Positions 22,709 to 62,335 are shown, numbered from the stretch's first letter. The stretch is DNA of 64,000 nt from Candidatus Eiseniibacteriota bacterium (GCA_052390515.1 JBQTGV010000044.1:15619-79618); one strand, 5' to 3'. The notes: generated by a model not told the origin, from the letters alone. Made by a program: numbers and translations.

Positions 22709-25216
22709 ATGCGTCGGCCGCTGCTCCTGCGCCGCCTGCTTGCGAACCGGAGGCTGTTGGTGCTCGCGCTCGCCGGCGTGCAGCTTCCACCGCTTCGAGC
22801 CTCGGGCCAGACCCTCCGCGACGACCTGTGGGTGACGGACGGCTTCGTGGAGGCGGTTGCCGTCTCGGGCGGCGTGATCTACCTGGGCGGGTCCTTCACC
22901 CGGATCAGCCCCGTCGTGGGCCGCTCGGTCTTGCTGGACACGGGGACCGGCTCGGCGCTCCCTCCCTACGCCGACATCGAGGGCATCGTGAGCACCGTGC
23001 TTCCCGACGGGAACGGCGGCTGGTACCTCGGCGGGTCTTTCACTTCCGTTCGCGGCGAGCCCAGGGACAATCTCGCGCAGGTGGACGCGGCCGGGAATCT
23101 CACACCGTGGGATCCCGGCCCGAACGGCCCCGTTCTGGTTCTTCGGGCGAGCCTGACCGCGTTGTACGCCGCTGGCGACTTCACGATGATCGGCGGTCAG
23201 CCGCGCAACCGGATCGCGGCGTTCGACCCGTCGAGCGGGGCGGTGACAGGCTGGGACCCGAACGCGGATCTCACGGTCTACGCACTGGTCGTGAGCGGGA
23301 GCACGGTGTACGCGGGAGGCGGATTCACGCGGATCGGCGGGCAAGCGCGCAACCGGATCGCGGCGCTCGACGCCGGCACCGGCTCGGCCACCGCCTGGAA
23401 CCCGAACGCGGACGTAGACGTTGCCGCGCTGGCGGTGAACGGGGGCACTGTGTACGCCGGAGGGTACTTCTCGACGATCGGTGGCGCGGGTCGCAGCTAT
23501 CTCGCGGCTCTCGACGTCGTGAACGGAGCCGCCACCGCGTGGAACCCGAACCCGAGCTCCCCCGTGCTCGCGCTCGCCGTCCACCAGCGGCCCACGTTTC
23601 CGTTCACCGTGACGGTCTACGCCGGAGGACTTTTCCAGACGGCAGGAGGTCAGCCGCGGAACTACGTCGCCGCACTCGATGGATCGACGGGACTCGCCAC
23701 GAGCTGGAACCCGAACGCGGACTGGAACGTGCGTACGCTGGCTTTCACGACCAACGTCGCCGGACAGGTCAGTGCGGTCTTCGCCGGCGGGGACTTCGCA
23801 ACGATCGGCGGCCAGCCGCGCGCGTACCTCGCAGCACTCGATGGATCCGGCGCGGCGACGAGCTGGAACCCGAAGCCGAACGGTCCGGTCAACACTCTCG
23901 CGCTGGGGATCGGAACCGTCTGTGCCGGAGGGCAGTTCACCAGCGCGGGCGGGCAGGTCCGTAGCAACCTCGCCGCGCTCGACGCGGCGACCGGAGCAGT
24001 CACCGGCTGGAACCCCAACGCGAACGGCATCGTGCGGGCGCTGGCCGTCGGCGGAGGCACGGTCTACGCCGCCGGCACGTTCACCGACATCGGCGGTCAG
24101 ACCCTCGTCCTCAACGTGGCGGCCCTCGACTCCGTCACCGGGGCCGCTCTCGGGACGTGGAACGGTGACGCTCACAACCCCGGCGATGTGCACGAGCTCG
24201 TGCTGCTCGGTGGCACCCTGTACGTGGGCGGCGACTTCGACCTCATCGGCGGCCAGTTCCGGAACAACCTGGCCGCGCTCGACGCCACGACCGGTGCGGC
24301 CACGAGCTGGAATCCTGACGCGAACGGCGCGGTCTACACGCTGGGCATCACCCAACGATTCAGCTTTCCGTTCACGATCACGGTCTACGCCGGCGGCGAG
24401 TTCGCCGTGTTGGGCGCGCAGCCGCGACTCAGCATCGGCGCGGTCGACGGCACCACCGGTCTGGCCACGAGCTGGAATCCCGGCGCCGACAGCGACGTCT
24501 ACGACCTCGCTCTCTCGACCGACCCGCTCGGGAACGAAACGTCGGTCCACGCGGCCGGCCTGTTCACGACGATCGGAGGGCAGTCGCGCGAGTACATCGC
24601 CGAGATCGACGGCTCCGGCGGGGTCACCGCCTGGAACCCCGATGCGAGCAGTCCCGTCAAAGCCCTGGCGCGGTCGGGCGATACGATCTACGCGGGCGGT
24701 GCCTTCTTCAACATCGGCGGGCAGTTTCGCCAGGGACTCGCGGCCCTGGACGTGACTTCCGGCTCCGCGACCGCGTGGAATCCCGACGTGGGCGGTGGGG
24801 GCACCGTGAACGCGCTGACCCTGTCGGGCGGCGAGATCTACGCGGTCGGCAGTTTCCCGAGCATCTCGGGGAAGCCCCATTCCAACGTCGCCGGGTTCGT
24901 CGACCAGGCCGTGGCCGTGCCGGAGCTGCCCCCGGGGCGTGACTCGCGCGGGGTCCACGCGGCCCCGAACCCGTTCCGCTCCGAGGTCGGACTGCGATTC
25001 ATTCCCGCCCGCGCGGGCCGCGTCATGGTGGGGGTGTACGACCTCTCCGGACGCCGTGTGCGTAGCGTCGAGCTGTTCGCGCGCAGCACGGGAGAGCACC
25101 ACGTGACCTGGGACGGGCGGGACGAAGCGGGGCGAAGCGTGGCGGCCGGTGTCTACTTCGTCCGGGTGCTGAGCGAGGGGCTCGATCTCGATGGCAAGCT
25201 GATCCGGATGAGATAG
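22709..25216 (+). CDS. Secreted delta-60-like beta-propeller repeat protein with a C-terminal T9SS/FlgD-Ig-type domain (paralog 2)
   Basis: It has the same repeat architecture as 19929..22430 and a signal peptide (LVLALAGVQLPPLRASGQ). The C-terminus is 'APNPFRSEVGLRF...VYDLSGRRV...GVYFVRV'. Confidence 0.65.
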   Translation: MRRPLLLRRLLANRRLLVLALAGVQLPPLRASGQTLRDDLWVTDGFVEAVAVSGGVIYLGGSFTRISPVVGRSVLLDTGTGSALPPYADIEGIVSTVLPDGNGGWYLGGSFTSVRGEPRDNLAQVDAAGNLTPWDPGPNGPVLVLRASLTALYAAGDFTMIGGQPRNRIAAFDPSSGAVTGWDPNADLTVYALVVSGSTVYAGGGFTRIGGQARNRIAALDAGTGSATAWNPNADVDVAALAVNGGTVYAGGYFSTIGGAGRSYLAALDVVNGAATAWNPNPSSPVLALAVHQRPTFPFTVTVYAGGLFQTAGGQPRNYVAALDGSTGLATSWNPNADWNVRTLAFTTNVAGQVSAVFAGGDFATIGGQPRAYLAALDGSGAATSWNPKPNGPVNTLALGIGTVCAGGQFTSAGGQVRSNLAALDAATGAVTGWNPNANGIVRALAVGGGTVYAAGTFTDIGGQTLVLNVAALDSVTGAALGTWNGDAHNPGDVHELVLLGGTLYVGGDFDLIGGQFRNNLAALDATTGAATSWNPDANGAVYTLGITQRFSFPFTITVYAGGEFAVLGAQPRLSIGAVDGTTGLATSWNPGADSDVYDLALSTDPLGNETSVHAAGLFTTIGGQSREYIAEIDGSGGVTAWNPDASSPVKALARSGDTIYAGGAFFNIGGQFRQGLAALDVTSGSATAWNPDVGGGGTVNALTLSGGEIYAVGSFPSISGKPHSNVAGFVDQAVAVPELPPGRDSRGVHAAPNPFRSEVGLRFIPARAGRVMVGVYDLSGRRVRSVELFARSTGEHHVTWDGRDEAGRSVAAGVYFVRVLSEGLDLDGKLIRMR

Positions 25217-56895: not shown

Positions 56896-57969
56896 ATGGC
56901 GACCGTCCTGGAGCGCAATCTGATCGGAACCGTTCGCGAGCGCCTCGGCCAGGACGCGGCGCTCCTGGATCACCGCTGCCGCACCATCCCGAAGGAGCGG
57001 CTCGCGCTGCCGGGTCCCGATTTCGTCGACCGGGTGATGACCGCGAGCGACCGTCCGGTGGCGGTGAACCGCGCGTACCAGCAGTTGCTCGACCACGGCC
57101 GGCTCGCCGGCACCGGCTACGTCTCCATCCTGCCCGTGGACCAGGGAATCGAGCACGCCGCGGGGGCATCGTTCGCCCCGAACCCCGACTATTTCGATCC
57201 CGAGAACATCGTGAAGCTGGCCATCGACGGCGGCTGCAACGGAGTCGCCTCGACGCTCGGCGTACTCGGGATCGTGGCGCGGAAGTACGCGCACCGCATT
57301 CCCTTCATCATGAAGTTCAACCACAACGAGCTCCTGTCGTACCCGAACCGCTACGACCAGACCATGTTCGGCAACGTCCGCCAGGCGTTCGACATGGGGG
57401 CCGTCGGCGTCGGCGCGACGATCTACTGGGGCTCCGAGGAATCCCAGCGGCAGCTGCAGGAGGTCTCGGACGCGTTCCACGTGGCGCACGAGCTGGGGAT
57501 GATCACCGTGCTGTGGTGCTACCTGCGCAACTCCGGCTTCAAGAAGGACGGCGTCGACTACCACGCCGCCGCGGATCTGACCGGCCAGGCGAACCACCTC
57601 GGCGCGACGATCCAGGCCGACATCGTGAAGCAGAAGCTGCCCGAGAACAACGGCGGCTTCAAGGCGATCAACTTCGGCAAGACGCACGAGAAGGTCTACA
57701 CCGAGCTGACCACCGACAACCCCATCGACCTGTGCCGCTACCAGGTGGCGAACTGCTACATGGGCCGCATCGGGTTGATCAATTCCGGCGGCGCGTCGGG
57801 CAAGAACGACCTGCAGGAAGGCACCATGACGGCCGTCGTGAACAAGCGCGCCGGCGGCATGGGACTCATCTCCGGACGCAAGGCGTTCCAGAAGCCGTTG
57901 AAGGACGGTATCGCGCTGCTGCACGCCATCCAGGACGTGTACCTGTGTCCTGACGTGACGGTGGCCTAG
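56896..57969 (+). CDS. fbaB: Fructose-bisphosphate aldolase, class I (FbaB/DhnA-type)
   Basis: '[13 protein letters not shown]' matches the FbaB 'ILPLDQGFEHGP' active-site region. Its length of ~357 aa fits. An AAGGAGAGG Shine-Dalgarno is present. Confidence 0.75.
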
Positions 57970-58640
57970 GCCGCGGGACTGCGGTCGATCCGGAAGTTGC
58001 GCAGGTCCGCGGTCAGGCGCGTGGGACAGCGCTCCCGCTGCACCCACGCGCGAAGGACGCTGCCCACGAGGGAAGCGGCGAAGAGCGGCCCGTAGGCGAT
58101 CATCCGCCGTGTGCACGGCTCCTCGTGCGCTTCGCCCTCGAGATCCTGCTCGTACTCCGCCTGGCCCGGGCCGCGCGGTTCCACCGTCCACACCTCGACG
58201 ACCTCGGCTCCCGCCCGCGCGTCGATCACGACGCGCACGTCGTCCCGCGCGCGCAGGTTGGACCAGATGCGACGGCGTTCCTGAAGGCTGTCGACCGCCA
58301 GGATGACGATGGGGCCGAGTTGCCGCTCCTCGGCGCCGGTGAATCGGGCGGAGACGGTCGTGATCTCCCGGTCGGTGATCCACGCGGCGAGGTCGGCGAG
58401 CGCGTCGACCTTGAGACGCTCCAATCTCACGTCCGTCTCCCGGAACCACTGCGTGGGCAGGTTGTGCAGCTCGCAGCGGTCGAAGTCCGTCAGCGTGATC
58501 CGGCTGAAGATCCCGAACCCCATGCGGCAGAGACAGAGCAGAATAGCGCCGCCGAGTGCGCCCGCTCCCGCGAGGTCCAGGTCCAGGTGGTCCAGACTTT
58601 TCGGGTGGAGAAGGTCACGCTGTCGCTCGAACGGGTCCAC
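57966..58640 (-). CDS. E1-like ThiF/MoeB/HesA-family adenylyltransferase (short, 224 aa)
   Basis: The Rossmann motif '[21 protein letters not shown]' and the '[14 protein letters not shown]' (DxDxxExSNLxRQ-like) motif are present. A Cys precedes the conserved '[15 protein letters not shown]' segment, in a crossover-loop-like position. It is the last gene of the Ubl operon. Confidence 0.65.
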
Positions 58641-58663
58641 GGATCGTCCTCCTTCCGAGTTTG

Positions 58664-59713
58664 TCAGAAGCCCCTGAAGATCGTACCGAGGGCGGGTCGC
58701 TCGCCGTACGCCGCGACGCCGATGGAGTTCGTTTCGGTGAAGTTCAGCACCGCGTCGACGACCCCGAACAAGTCCCGGGAGTCCCCGAGACGCGGGAGCA
58801 CGGTCGATCCTGATCCCGGGCAGGGGATGCGGTACTCGTCGCTCGGCGGATCGGGATTCCAGTAGCGCAGCGCGACGCCCTGCCGGGGATCCCGCAGCCG
58901 GACGCCGAACATCAGGGGAGCGCGCCGCCGTCCCTCCGCGACGGCCGCCGGCTGGATCAGGCCGATCACCTCGTCTTCCCCGAAGCGAAGGAGGCCGACC
59001 GCCCGGCTGCGGACGAGCTGCACGAGCCTCGCCACTTCGCGGCTCGCGTCGGGCAGCGGCGGCACCTCCGGCGTCCGGGCGAGAGCCTGCTCCAGCTCCT
59101 CGAGCCGCGACGCGAGCGCGCCGTGGACGGCGCCGGCTTCCTGCTCACGGATGCGCCGGAGGAAGACGAGCTCCCGCTCCATGCCGGCTCGCCAGCCGCC
59201 GCCGCGATTGGCCAGGGTACGGGCGCGCACCTCGACGTCCGGTCCAATCGAGACCTCGTCGCCCGCCGCCGCGAGGATGGCGGACAGCGGCCGCTCGAAC
59301 AGCGCCTCTGCTACCGCGCCGAGCGGATCCGGGCCGTGGCCTTCCTCGAGCGAGGATCGCGACAGCTCGACCAGCAGATGGACCGTGGCCGTGTCCGGAT
59401 CGGCGCACGCCACCGGCACCCGCGCGCCGTTCGTGTCCCGCGCGAGCGAAACGTGCATCGGCGAGGCGACCGACGGCGCGCTCCGGACCCGGCAGAGCAG
59501 CGTGGCGCCGGAACCTGCGCCGTCGAAGCGGATGCGCGCGCGTCGGCCGGAGTACCCCCCGGCCCCGGAGTCCAGCAGCGCGAGTGGGACTTTCGGGCGA
59601 ATGGTTGCGTCGTCGGCTGCCAGCGGCCAGGTCCCGACCGGCGGACAGGTGATCCGATTCGCGGCCTCCAGGCGGTCCTTCCTCTCGATCAACAGCTCCT
59701 TCACCGAACGCAT
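58664..59713 (-). CDS. Hypothetical protein (349 aa) encoded between the Ubl and E1-like genes
   Basis: It is co-oriented with 60-nt and 23-nt intergenic gaps. No canonical motifs were found. C-terminal 'ALRYWNPDPPSDEYRIPCPGSG' is weakly reminiscent of an E2 HPN-x-Cys region; this is speculative. Confidence 0.35.
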   Translation of the reverse strand: MRSVKELLIERKDRLEAANRITCPPVGTWPLAADDATIRPKVPLALLDSGAGGYSGRRARIRFDGAGSGATLLCRVRSAPSVASPMHVSLARDTNGARVPVACADPDTATVHLLVELSRSSLEEGHGPDPLGAVAEALFERPLSAILAAAGDEVSIGPDVEVRARTLANRGGGWRAGMERELVFLRRIREQEAGAVHGALASRLEELEQALARTPEVPPLPDASREVARLVQLVRSRAVGLLRFGEDEVIGLIQPAAVAEGRRRAPLMFGVRLRDPRQGVALRYWNPDPPSDEYRIPCPGSGSTVLPRLGDSRDLFGVVDAVLNFTETNSIGVAAYGERPALGTIFRGF

Positions 59714-59773
59714 GGCCAGCCTCCAGGTGGTGGCGGGGAGAGCGAAGCTGCTCCCCCCGCCGGGGAGTGGCGG

Positions 59774-60007
59774 TCAGCCGCCTTGAATGCGCGGAACGAC
59801 GGTGAGCTCGTCGCCCTCGCGGACCGGTTCCGTCGCCGTCGCCGGATTCCCGTTCCGCGCGAGACGATGCTCGCCGGGCTCCACTCCGTGGCCGCGCAGC
59901 ACGTCGCCGATGGTCATGCTCGGTTCGGAGACTCGGGCTCGGCGCCTCTCGGCGCCGAACACGCTCAGCGTCACCTCGGCTTCTTTCGTCACCGTGTTCG
60001 CGATCAT
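59774..60007 (-). CDS. Ubiquitin-like beta-grasp protein (ThiS/MoaD-like) ending in Gly-Gly
   Basis: It is 77 aa. The C-terminal 'EGDELTVVPRIQGG*' matches the MoaD/ThiS/Ubl diglycine tail pattern. It is the first gene of a three-gene operon ending in the E1-like gene. Confidence 0.6.
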   Translation of the reverse strand: MIANTVTKEAEVTLSVFGAERRRARVSEPSMTIGDVLRGHGVEPGEHRLARNGNPATATEPVREGDELTVVPRIQGG

Positions 60008-60289
60008 GCTCGTCCTCCTTCGTGCTCCTCAGACTGCCGCGCGCGAGCGATTCGCGCCGGCCACTCCCGTTTGCCAGAACCACGCGCACCGACGCAAGGC
60101 AGAGGGCCGTTCGCGACCCTCCTTGCCGGCACTACCGACACTCCCGACATCGTGCTCGTCGTCGCGGGGAAATCCGGAAAACCCGGTGCGCAACGCTCCG
60201 TAGCGGAGAATTCGCCCTGCACGCGGTGCTGGTTCGCGCGCCGTCGGCGTCCCGCGCCGTTTCCCTTCGCACAGAGCGCCGTTCCGACT

Positions 60290-60298
60290 TGGTAGAAT
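60290..60298 (+). promoter_or_regulatory. Extended -10 (TGgTAGAAT) candidate promoter for the 60330 gene
   Basis: TG-n-TAGAAT lies 32 nt upstream of the ATG, with a strong AGGAGGGGG Shine-Dalgarno between them. Confidence 0.35.
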
Positions 60299-60329
60299 CC
60301 GCAGGCTCGGCACAGGAGGGGGTGACGGT

Positions 60330-61700
60330 ATGCGCGCCAGGAAACGAGTGGATGCGGTGCAGCGGTTCTTCCGGGTGCTCTTCGAGTCGGGTCGAGTCCA
60401 GATCCTCGGGCTGGCGTCGGCGGGCGAGCACATCCGCGACGGCATGGCCCTCGCCCGGATCGTGTGGTTGCTGGCGTCGAAGCAGCTGCCCCGCATCGTG
60501 GTCGAGCCGAGCCGCTCGCGCGCGCTGCTGGAGGAGAACGTCGTGTTCATCGGAGCGACGCTGCTGTTCGTGGAACCGGGACCCTCGGGTACTCCGCAGC
60601 CGGCCGAGGCGCAGATCCGGATCCTGCCGCGCTCGAAGATCGGCAAGAGACTCGACGACCTGCACCAGCGATGTTGCTACCGGCTGGTGAAGCGGGGAGG
60701 GCGCATCATCGTCAACTCGGTCACGGGAGAGGTGTACCGCCCGGTGGTGAACCGGGTGGACCGCGTGGTCGAGGACTACGCGGTCATCCGCCGCACGTTC
60801 CGGAACCACCACGGGAACACCATCACGTTCGAAGGCGTGCACCGGCTCGGAACGTATGCCGCGGTGAAGTTCGCCACCGACCCGATCTACCTGAAGCAGG
60901 TCTGGGACGCGGTGAGCGAGCTGGACGTGTTCGACGAGTCCGTGCCGCTGGAGATCCTCGTGAAGGCGACGTTCCACGACGACGGCGACGAGGGTGTGTA
61001 CGCACACGACGACGTGATCGTGACCCCGATGCAGGTCGTCTACGACAGGCGCTGGATCTACGACCTCGGCGCGAGGGACCGATGGCGCGACCAGGGACCG
61101 TGGGACGTGCAGCTGGCCGTGGAGGGCCGAGGGCGGCCGCAGGTGCTGCGCCCAGGCACGGGCCCGCGGAACGCCGCGTCGCTGGAGCTCGAGGCGGATC
61201 TGTCCGAGCTCGGCCAGGCGGCGCGCGAGCGCGTGCGGCGCGTCTTCGCGGTGCCCGACGGCAAGGCGCGCGTCGGTGTGATGGCGACGGAGGCCGCGAG
61301 CGTCGTCGAGACGCTGGTGGCCGAGGCGGAGCGCTTCGGAGCGGGTCTGGTCGATGGGCAGGAGTACACGAGGCTCCCCGAGAGAGGCGCGGAGAGTCGC
61401 GACGTCCGCAAGAAGTTCGTGGTGCATCTGGCGCTGTGCCGCATGCTGGGGATCGGCGTGCCGTGTGATGCCGCAGCGATCCGCCGGTGCTATCCGGAGC
61501 TCTCCGGTAAGCTGTCCGACGCCGAACTGGAGGGCGCGTTCAAGCTGCAGGTTCGTGGAAGGATCGAGCGCGGATTCGGAGCAGTGTTCGCCAACCGGGG
61601 TGGAGCGGGCCCGTGCGCGGTGATCGAGCTCTCCCGCCGAAGCCAGATCTATCAGCTTCGTCTGGAAGCGGCCGCGCTCGTCCTTCGCCTGCGACTCTGA
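60330..61700 (+). CDS. Hypothetical protein (456 aa), divergent from the Ubl/E1 operon
   Basis: It is a clean ORF with a strong Shine-Dalgarno. No recognisable motifs were found. Confidence 0.4.
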   Translation: MRARKRVDAVQRFFRVLFESGRVQILGLASAGEHIRDGMALARIVWLLASKQLPRIVVEPSRSRALLEENVVFIGATLLFVEPGPSGTPQPAEAQIRILPRSKIGKRLDDLHQRCCYRLVKRGGRIIVNSVTGEVYRPVVNRVDRVVEDYAVIRRTFRNHHGNTITFEGVHRLGTYAAVKFATDPIYLKQVWDAVSELDVFDESVPLEILVKATFHDDGDEGVYAHDDVIVTPMQVVYDRRWIYDLGARDRWRDQGPWDVQLAVEGRGRPQVLRPGTGPRNAASLELEADLSELGQAARERVRRVFAVPDGKARVGVMATEAASVVETLVAEAERFGAGLVDGQEYTRLPERGAESRDVRKKFVVHLALCRMLGIGVPCDAAAIRRCYPELSGKLSDAELEGAFKLQVRGRIERGFGAVFANRGGAGPCAVIELSRRSQIYQLRLEAAALVLRLRL

Positions 61701-61858: not shown

Positions 61859-62335
61859 ATGACTACGGTTCGTCCCCTCGCGGCCGCCGCCCTGCTCGTC
61901 GCGGTCGCGGCCGTCCCCTCGTTCGCCACCGTCATCAACACGCCGGGCACGTACTCGGTGAGCGTGGCGGTGGACACGTCGCTTCTGCCCGTTCCCGTGC
62001 CGGGGCTCCCGACCCTCGGGCCGAGCGTGTACTCCGGCACGGTGATCATCGCGTCGCGCAGCTTCGGGCTTTCCGCGCAGTTCCGCGGGACCTCGGCCAC
62101 CGGCGACGAGCTGGTCATCAAGTCCCGCTTCGCGCACGGCTGGTTCGGACTCACCGTTTCGCCGCTCGTCATCGGCGGGCAGGTCGTTCCCAACGCCGTG
62201 ATCGGCGTGGACGGCGCGAGCATGATCTCCATGGAGATCCTCGGCGTCGGCCTGGTCGACGGCATCCGGTCCGACGTCAAGGCGAAGGTCGGCGCGGGCC
62301 CGGTCCTCAAGCAGTTCGTCGTCACGCCGCTCTAG
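61859..62335 (+). CDS. Small secreted hypothetical protein (159 aa)
   Basis: The signal peptide is LAAAALLVAVAAVPSFA. The protein is beta-rich. Confidence 0.4.
   Translation: MTTVRPLAAAALLVAVAAVPSFATVINTPGTYSVSVAVDTSLLPVPVPGLPTLGPSVYSGTVIIASRSFGLSAQFRGTSATGDELVIKSRFAHGWFGLTVSPLVIGGQVVPNAVIGVDGASMISMEILGVGLVDGIRSDVKAKVGAGPVLKQFVVTPL

Follow-up and report, generated by a model that had tools for sequence, protein, structure and literature searches.

We describe here a four-gene module, about 3.7 kb in size, carried by a stretch of 64,000 nucleotides (the window) from a metagenome-assembled genome (MAG) of Candidatus Eiseniibacteriota; the matching public entries, whose proteins are identical, bear the same label. 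Three genes form an operon encoding a small ubiquitin-like protein (Ubl) that ends in Gly-Gly, a 349-aa orphan protein and a short E1-like protein of 224 aa, and a second orphan of 456 aa is encoded divergently. These four genes are a real module, and not chance open reading frames (ORFs) or an accident of synteny, because their orthologues are found together in 12 loci whose flanks are unrelated. We propose that the module is a self-contained protein-conjugation cascade devoid of JAB peptidase, in which the Ubl would pass from Cys176 of the E1 to Cys298 of the 349-aa protein; we prefer this reading of the sequences while holding it with slightly less confidence than doubt.

A rare module that moves as a unit

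The 12 loci where all four genes stand together are independent and belong to MAGs labelled Eiseniibacteriota, Gemmatimonadota and Acidobacteriota; three further contigs start inside the operon. The closest relatives (56-82% identity) share the entire neighbourhood of the window and are, on their own, of little weight. In the distant relatives the arrangement is the same, with the 456-aa-type gene divergent, then the Ubl, the 349-aa-type gene and the E1, and the flanks encode a Na/H antiporter, a peptidase M13, EamA, ABC transporters, an RCC1-repeat protein, PhzF or a carbamoyltransferase. These contexts are ordinary chromosomal ones, made of housekeeping genes and not beside conjugation genes. 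The module moves as a unit between soil-bacterial lineages. An earlier note on this DNA had remarked that the 456-aa gene is divergent from the operon; linkage across loci now makes it a module member, since its homologues, wherever the upstream sequence is present, stand divergently from the Ubl operon.

The module is rare and patchy, and its flanks change. A word-indexed search of 5.8 billion proteins gave 5 relatives of the 349-aa protein, and an exhaustive profile search of 1.84 billion representatives gave a family of 47 cluster representatives, 41 of them at E<=1e-10. Scanning 185,579 species, one genome each, yielded a related E1 at 17 loci, of which eight are of the close family and lie in MAGs labelled Gemmatimonadota, Acidobacteria/Acidobacteriota or just "bacterium". 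A plasmid collection searched by tblastn with the E1, the 349-aa and 456-aa proteins and the E2-like protein described below returned no match. An antiviral or stress role, suggested in the earlier note, was not borne out: besides this empty plasmid search, neither orphan protein has a match in PADLOC or PHROGs (in the latter, only the E1 domain is matched among the module proteins) and no defence-island context was seen at the loci. The evidence speaks neither for nor against an antiviral role.

Two matches were set aside. A 3580-aa surface-repeat protein (P0098) reaches E 4.5e-15 with the 349-aa profile; the score is an artefact of summing 34 weak matches, each of which pairs one repeat with the C-terminal 50 residues. 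Another protein (P0122, L045:3913-4956) joins the N-terminal half of a 456-aa-family protein to a DnaJ_C fragment near a contig end; we rejected it as an informative fusion, as it probably comes from a rearranged or chimeric assembly.

A related operon on conjugative elements

More distant E1 relatives, 30-34% identical to the module E1 (tblastn), occur in MAGs of Planctomycetota, Pirellulales, Gammaproteobacteria and Syntrophales (L016-L023) and on 17 metagenome contigs (L025-L041). Their closely packed operon, e.g. L017:3638-8444, encodes in this order a Ubl of 89 aa, a 479-aa protein, a Prok-JAB protein of 256 aa, an E1 of 220 aa and a PD-(D/E)XK/Cas4-like protein. A TrwB/TraD-type coupling protein, DUF2958 and DUF3072 adjoin it, which indicates a conjugative element; by NCBIfam scores the operon is not PRTRC. 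One planctomycete MAG has four copies of it. The E1s of the module and of the conjugative elements have in common the replacement of the Arg of NLxRQ, the segment DAR[AM]GAE and, in the crossover loop, P-C-[TS]-x-R.

The 479-aa protein consists of a coiled coil, an E2-like core and a Cys-rich tail. Its core, HPN-x5-PHPHV-x3-G-x-PCLGNI...LQLLxSFLSSYNPxxPY (HP[NH] family-wide), aligns with HPN...G-x-I-CLDIL...LLxSLLxxPNPxxP of four eukaryotic E2s, whose sequences were entered by hand. With the same E2s hhalign gives P 8e-5 and scores of 36-38, the maximum after block shuffling being 24.8 (n=40). Judged by this alignment, the 479-aa protein is a bona fide E2-like protein, which Pfam does not recognise. 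As part of our preferred reading, the module would come from the same stock as this Ubl-E2-JAB-E1 operon.

A mature ubiquitin-like protein and a short E1

The Ubl is recognised by Pfam as ThiS (PF02597, E 1.7e-6, 28.9 bits for a cut-off of 22.5, residues 16-77), and NCBIfam and PADLOC give weak sulfur-carrier or SAMP-like matches only. It ends in the window with ...VVPRIQGG-stop. In the loci read, the module Ubls end with ...VPR[IV][QHV]GG-stop and carry no extension; ...IQAG-stop, in L001, is the sole exception. The diglycine noticed at first in the window is thus kept in all loci but one. As the C-terminus is exactly GG or AG without extension, these Ubls are translated in mature form. The homologous Ubls of the conjugative elements end with ...PKVEGG followed by one or two extra residues. 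Such extra residues fit the JAB present there, as the mature form fits its absence from the module, and the processing step and the JAB may well have been lost together.

The E1 is a single domain, filled by Pfam ThiF (E 6.2e-12, 45.6 bits, cut-off 28.1). Below threshold, NCBIfam and PADLOC match it to ThiF, MoeB, 6A-MBL and PRTRC, always within the Rossmann half, and the PADLOC E1-E2 models match only residues 20-123. With ThiS and ThiF both above cut-off and the 349-aa protein unmatched, the operon is, as the earlier note had it, a Ubl and E1 operon with an unknown middle component. Across 30 members of the E1 family the invariant residues include R6, the glycines of GxGxxGG (G25-x-G27-x-x-G30-G31, 30/30), K77, D117, R122, D140, R142 and the crossover-loop Cys176; a neighbour in this loop, Tyr183, is Phe in one member. 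K77, D117 and C176 align with the Lys K86, the Mg-binding Asp D130 and the Cys of MoeB, an equivalence that is provisional, the MoeB sequence having been entered by hand. Non-canonical E1s such as Atg7 and Cap2 use a crossover-loop Cys for their thioester.

The 349-aa protein in the E2 slot

The 349-aa protein has no match in Pfam, NCBIfam, PADLOC, PHROGs or PDB sequences. Its AlphaFold (AF2) model, computed from an alignment of 39 sequences, has a pLDDT (predicted local distance difference test) of 91 and a pTM (predicted template modelling score) of 0.87, a run with 5 sequences being unusable (pLDDT 34). The model comprises a beta domain made of an N-terminal helix and eight strands (residues 1-126), a helical bundle (130-213), and a C-terminal part with a helix (224-235), strands (239-285), a short strand (294-296), Cys298, two helices (302-311 and 315-328) and Asn329. 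The predicted order of this last part, i.e. helix, four-strand beta-meander, Cys, short helix and long helix ending at Asn, suggests the layout of a UBC domain. A fold search found no structural neighbour among solved structures. The protein, first listed as one of no recognisable family, thus models confidently, yet no cofactor-biosynthesis enzyme matches it.

In the 39-sequence alignment, whose members are 24-35% identical, only G157, R237, F269, C298 and N329 are invariant. Cys298 belongs to a mostly conserved C-L-G, which is C-P-G in the window protein, and Gly300 is nearly invariant. Counted from the Cys, a Phe is found at C+27 and Asn329 at C+31; in the E2-like protein of the conjugative elements, CLG is followed by a Phe at C+27 as well, and the invariant Asn is at C+32. 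The corresponding Asn in canonical E2s is, by alignment, that of "PN" after helix 2. Most likely the 349-aa protein works in the E2 position, and it is either an extremely diverged UBC domain or a new carrier fold.

The divergent 456-aa protein

This fourth protein is likewise without a match in Pfam, NCBIfam, PADLOC, PHROGs or PDB sequences, and its family shows no similarity to the JAB and Cas4-like proteins of the conjugative elements. Fourteen homologues have in common the motifs GIVVEPS, N-x-V-T-G-E, D-Y-G-V-I-R-R and L-E-G-x-H-R-L-G-T, and also F-D-E-x-x-P-L-E-I-L-V, D-Q-x-P-W, E-A-D-L and R-K-x-F-x-x-H-L. We considered a Cys-His protease, which appears unlikely because neither residue is universal: one orthologue has Gln in place of the nearly invariant His171, and Cys116 is absent from one. 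Because its gene is constantly linked to the operon in divergent orientation, we speculate that the 456-aa protein is the best candidate for a target, a target-recruiter or an effector.

Weighing a conjugation cascade

The cascade that we prefer builds on what the loci display, namely the genes present, the GG end of a mature Ubl, the cysteines that are invariant and the kinship to an operon with an E2-like protein and a JAB; its chemical steps we infer. The 77-aa Ubl, translated mature with a free Gly-Gly C-terminus as read in the sequence, would have its Gly77 adenylated by the ATP-bound short E1. It would then form a thioester with the crossover-loop Cys176, be transferred to Cys298 of the 349-aa protein acting as the equivalent of an E2 carrier, and finally reach a lysine of the target, the 456-aa protein being this target, a factor recruiting it or an effector. 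With a Ubl that requires no processing and no peptidase gene in the module, there would be no dedicated enzyme to undo the tagging.

Several observations weigh against such a cascade. To begin with, the top family matches of the Ubl are the sulfur carriers ThiS, MoaD and SAMP. Instead of conjugation, the E1 could adenylate the Ubl so that it ends as a C-terminal thiocarboxylate, with Cys176 and/or Cys298 relaying a persulfide; the 349-aa protein, the 456-aa protein or both would catalyse the donation of the sulfur to some metabolite or RNA. That the Ubl family matches nothing else fits this explanation, as do the short single-domain ThiF-like E1 with its crossover-loop Cys, as in ThiF and MoeB, and the GG terminus, which is common to sulfur carriers. 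The neighbourhoods also are of the housekeeping type and not defence islands, and the 349-aa protein is not demonstrably an E2. However, among the adjacent genes of every locus examined we found no thiG/H/O, moaE/A or cysM, no rhodanese, cysteine desulfurase or PP-loop ATPase, and no JAB either; what had been noticed in the window alone, the absence of the canonical thiamine, molybdopterin and cysteine partners and of a JAB, extends to all of them. Besides, the 5-kb region around the operon is without any Rfam match (E<=1), so that there is no thiamine pyrophosphate (TPP) or molybdenum cofactor (Moco) riboswitch at the operon; the same empty scan led us to reject any riboswitch or other regulatory RNA between the Ubl operon and the 456-aa gene. 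On conjugative elements, the closest kin of the E1 and Ubl have a JAB and a bona fide E2-like protein beside them. A core cofactor pathway would not be expected to be so rare and patchy (17 loci among 185,579 species genomes), nor to change its flanks from locus to locus. We regard a sulfur carrier as a serious possibility, but a doubtful one.

The ATP site of the E1 is the second difficulty. In canonical E1, MoeB and ThiF proteins the Arg of (S)NLxRQ contacts the ATP phosphates. The corresponding motif, invariant in the 30 family members at its numbered positions other than 63, D52-F-D54-x-C56-x-x-H59-N60-L-x-[T/N/S]63-Q64-W65 (DFDxCxxHNLxTQWF in short), has at this Arg position a Thr in 24, an Asn in five and a Ser in one. 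The Ser position is an invariant His. Of the description first given for this E1, a GxGxxG, a DxDxxExSNLxRQ-like motif and a crossover-loop Cys, the first and last parts hold, and the canonical ATP motif does not, its Arg and Ser being replaced. The invariant Cys56 and His59 standing inside the nucleotide-binding motif in place of the usual Val and Ser, together with the absent Arg, suggest a remodelled ATP site or an added function. In pairwise alignments with Uba1, Uba6 and Uba7, NLPTQ of the window E1 falls on NLNRQ or NLSRQ of the active adenylation domains; the best single alignment to a solved E1 is nevertheless with an inactive adenylation domain, likewise lacking the Arg. As the Arg is absent family-wide, adenylation of the Ubl is an assumption. 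Arg142, in the invariant DAR[AM]GAE segment, is a candidate replacement for the absent Arg.

This unusual ATP site might also fit a ligation of the MccB/PaaA type, in which the E1-like enzyme would activate the C-terminus of the 77-aa protein for a modification not involving a second protein, the orphans tailoring or exporting the product. E1-like enzymes do perform such chemistry, MccB being an example (PMC11118369). Yet the substrate would here be a full beta-grasp domain of the ThiS family and not a short peptide, the 224-aa E1 is without the extra peptide-clamp domain, and the module is not accompanied by a conserved transporter or tailoring enzyme. This explanation is very improbable.

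The remaining objections concern the 349-aa protein. Its 39 family members were compared with Pfam, including UQ_con and Prok-E2, and nothing was found. The HPN motif is not conserved in the family, W-x-P being a majority pattern only. Against the four eukaryotic E2s, with their sequences entered by hand, hhalign scores 11-14.6 at a probability of 0.13%. Against the E2 family of the conjugative elements the local score of 23.4 (P ~0.05) exceeds all 40 column shuffles; it nevertheless lies inside the null of block shuffling (median 21.6, maximum 27.8). Collinearity favours the link, but marginally, the Sum_probs of 101, for a null median of 59, being reached by one shuffle in 40. Also in favour of it, a relaxed hhalign alignment of the 349-aa and 479-aa families is collinear over about 290-330 columns and pairs D..G..VPV..D....hLLV.L of the N-domain, a helical R-E-L-x-F-L, the helix before the sheet and CLG. 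Enlarging the family of the conjugative elements by the metagenome scan did not improve the link. We do not file the 349-aa protein as an E2, because these profile scores are within the shuffle null or marginal and the eukaryotic E2s give no signal. The silence of Pfam is only weak evidence against such kinship, since Pfam also misses the E2-like protein of the conjugative elements.

An E1 acting without E2 would be another explanation. Activated by the E1 alone, the Ubl could be attached directly to its target, as are Urm1, SAMP and TtuB, the 349-aa and/or 456-aa proteins being substrates or adaptors and Cys298 a site of modification or regulation. E2-independent conjugation of the Urm1 type is documented (PMC9574740); the strict linkage of the four genes agrees with it, and no E2, E3 or deubiquitinase family was detected in the module proteins. 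In the same direction, and as a last point against the cascade, one Acidobacteriota locus (L015:5344-7684, bin529, CP070706.1) keeps the 456-aa-family gene directly divergent to the E1 gene, with neither Ubl nor 349-aa gene between them. This MAG locus has, however, runs of masked N just downstream, and may result from decay, rearrangement or misassembly. Besides, direct tagging leaves aside that Cys298 and Asn329 are invariant in members only ~24-35% identical, with a pattern and a spacing like those of an E2 active site, and that in the related operon the E2 is encoded where the 349-aa gene stands here. We consider it decidedly unlikely.

A bolder reading can also be put forward. The 349-aa protein would be a new, non-UBC cysteine carrier forming with the 456-aa protein an unprecedented machinery for Ubl transfer, the third independent solution after the E2 thioester and the Bub oxyester. 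An E1 able to bind ATP in the absence of the canonical Arg would drive this machinery, which chromosomes of Eiseniibacteriota, Gemmatimonadota and Acidobacteriota would have domesticated from the operon of the conjugative elements to tag proteins endogenously and irreversibly. As a whole, we think this unlikely.

The locus in the window

The positions of the module genes are collected in Table 1; for the three operon genes our ORF calls agree exactly with the coordinates of the earlier note. Each of these three genes is preceded by a ribosome-binding site (AGGAGG or GGAGG), and the gaps between them are 60 and 23 nt.

Table 1. Genes of the module and the region between its two arms, in window positions
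Feature	Position	Strand	Basis
Ubl (ubiquitin-like beta-grasp protein), 77 aa	59774-60007	-	ORF, Pfam ThiS, ribosome-binding site AAGGAGG upstream
349-aa orphan protein ("E2 slot")	58664-59713	-	ORF; outside all family libraries scanned
Short non-canonical E1/ThiF-family protein, 224 aa	57966-58640	-	ORF, Pfam ThiF
456-aa orphan protein, divergent	60330-61700	+	ORF; constant fourth module member
Divergent intergenic (promoter) region, 322 bp, common to the Ubl operon and the 456-aa gene	60008-60329	.	ORF coordinates

The 322-bp intergenic region has no match to the sigma-70 consensus, and the repeats found in it are short and weak. At the other end of the operon, a class I aldolase gene (DeoC/LacD family, + strand, end at 57969) converges with the E1 gene (- strand, end at 57966), the two overlapping by 4 nt; no terminator-like site was found at this convergence (57966-57969). 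Directly 3' of the 456-aa gene lies the gene of a 158-aa protein (61859-62335, + strand) with a signal-peptide-like N-terminal segment. We rejected this secreted protein as a fifth component: it is probably outside the module, because its conservation does not extend beyond the closest relative (L001/L002).

Two other features of the window are distant from the module. At positions 23163-23481, 2.2 copies of a 144-nt unit stand in tandem with 75% matches; within a coding region, they apparently represent a protein repeat of 48 residues. Positions 40300-41800 show a strong negative AT skew (-0.23) and 73.5% GC over an ORF whose product resembles a multi-pass membrane protein, which looks like an ordinary compositional bias.

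Novelty and significance

The Ubl and E1 superfamilies are already known, as is the logic that combines a Ubl, an E1 and a Cys carrier. The four-gene architecture is new, and so are the two undescribed protein families, a confidently predicted fold without neighbour, an Arg-less E1, and the loss of the JAB with a mature Ubl; no description of the module was found in the literature searched. Ubl conjugation in bacteria by CBASS (cyclic-oligonucleotide-based antiphage signalling system) Cap2, Bil and Bub has only lately been shown to work, each of these systems revealing a new chemistry and a stage in how eukaryotic ubiquitination arose. To these the module adds a compact JAB-less architecture in which the ATP site of the E1 appears rewired. 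Its evolutionary link to the Ubl-E2-JAB-E1 operon of mobile elements makes it a case study of simplification and re-purposing. Its hosts belong to poorly studied, uncultured phyla of soil and sediment, and its ~3.7 kb are small enough for synthesis and direct testing.

Comparison with known systems

The pairs ThiS-ThiF, MoaD-MoeB and CysO-MoeZ resemble the module in associating a GG beta-grasp protein with a short ThiF-family enzyme that has a crossover-loop Cys, and they provide its only significant family matches. However, all module scores are far below the cut-offs of the thiamine and molybdopterin equivalogs (e.g. for ThiF PRK08644, 40.9 against 159 bits), nothing linked to the module is an acceptor enzyme, a sulfur donor or a riboswitch, and the SNLxRQ Arg is absent. 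PRTRC is as distant: the E1 scores 18.9 bits with TIGR03736, whose cut-off is 144.75, and no other PRTRC model was matched.

The module E1 is also like the E1 part of Type II CBASS Cap2/Cap3 and of 6A-MBL (PADLOC E1-E2 1.5e-7; NCBIfam 6A-MBL cap2_3 5.7e-8), and it has the catalytic Cys in the crossover loop like the Cap2-type E1s. These systems, on the other hand, are E2-E1 fusions that conjugate a CD-NTase, or act with an MBL protein and a JAB as partners; the module has none of these.

BilABCD systems are bacterial, ISG15-like and antiphage (PMC10557695; summary in 10.1101/2024.11.21.623953), and possess a JAB peptidase, BilC, and a multidomain E1 of IAD-AAD-CYS type (10.1101/2024.11.21.623953). 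Like them, the module encodes as separate proteins of one operon a Ubl, an E1 and, in the E2 slot, the 349-aa protein, and no E3; the Bil E2 is proposed to choose the targets. It differs by its 224-aa single-domain E1, whose Cys lies in the crossover loop, by the absence of a JAB in the module or its flanks, and by an unsupported defence role.

In the Bub systems (6E/DUF6527), the Ubl is fused to the E2, and the JAB or the E2 to the E1; DUF6527 is a serine protease and the chemistry is that of Tyr/Ser oxyesters (10.1101/2024.11.21.623953). Like Bub, the module would be a diverged bacterial Ubl-E1-E2 pathway with unconventional active sites, and Type II Bub too is usually devoid of JAB. The module proteins are, by contrast, separate, none of them matches DUF6527, and their conserved residues are cysteines, the crossover loop of the E1 carrying the invariant Cys176, that of Bub a catalytic Tyr.

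The "6d" class, in which the Ubl, JAB, E1-like protein and E2-like protein are encoded by separate genes (Iyer, Burroughs & Aravind 2006, PMC1779556), agrees in composition with the operon found on the conjugative elements, which is the nearest instance to the module that we found. Compared with this operon, the module has neither the JAB nor the PD-(D/E)XK/Cas4-like gene, its Ubl is mature and the 456-aa gene is added; its 349-aa protein has lost the recognisable features of an E2, being without HPN/HPH and Cys-rich tail. Both nevertheless share a separate small Ubl, a short single-domain E1, a Cys-bearing protein encoded between them, and the same gene order.

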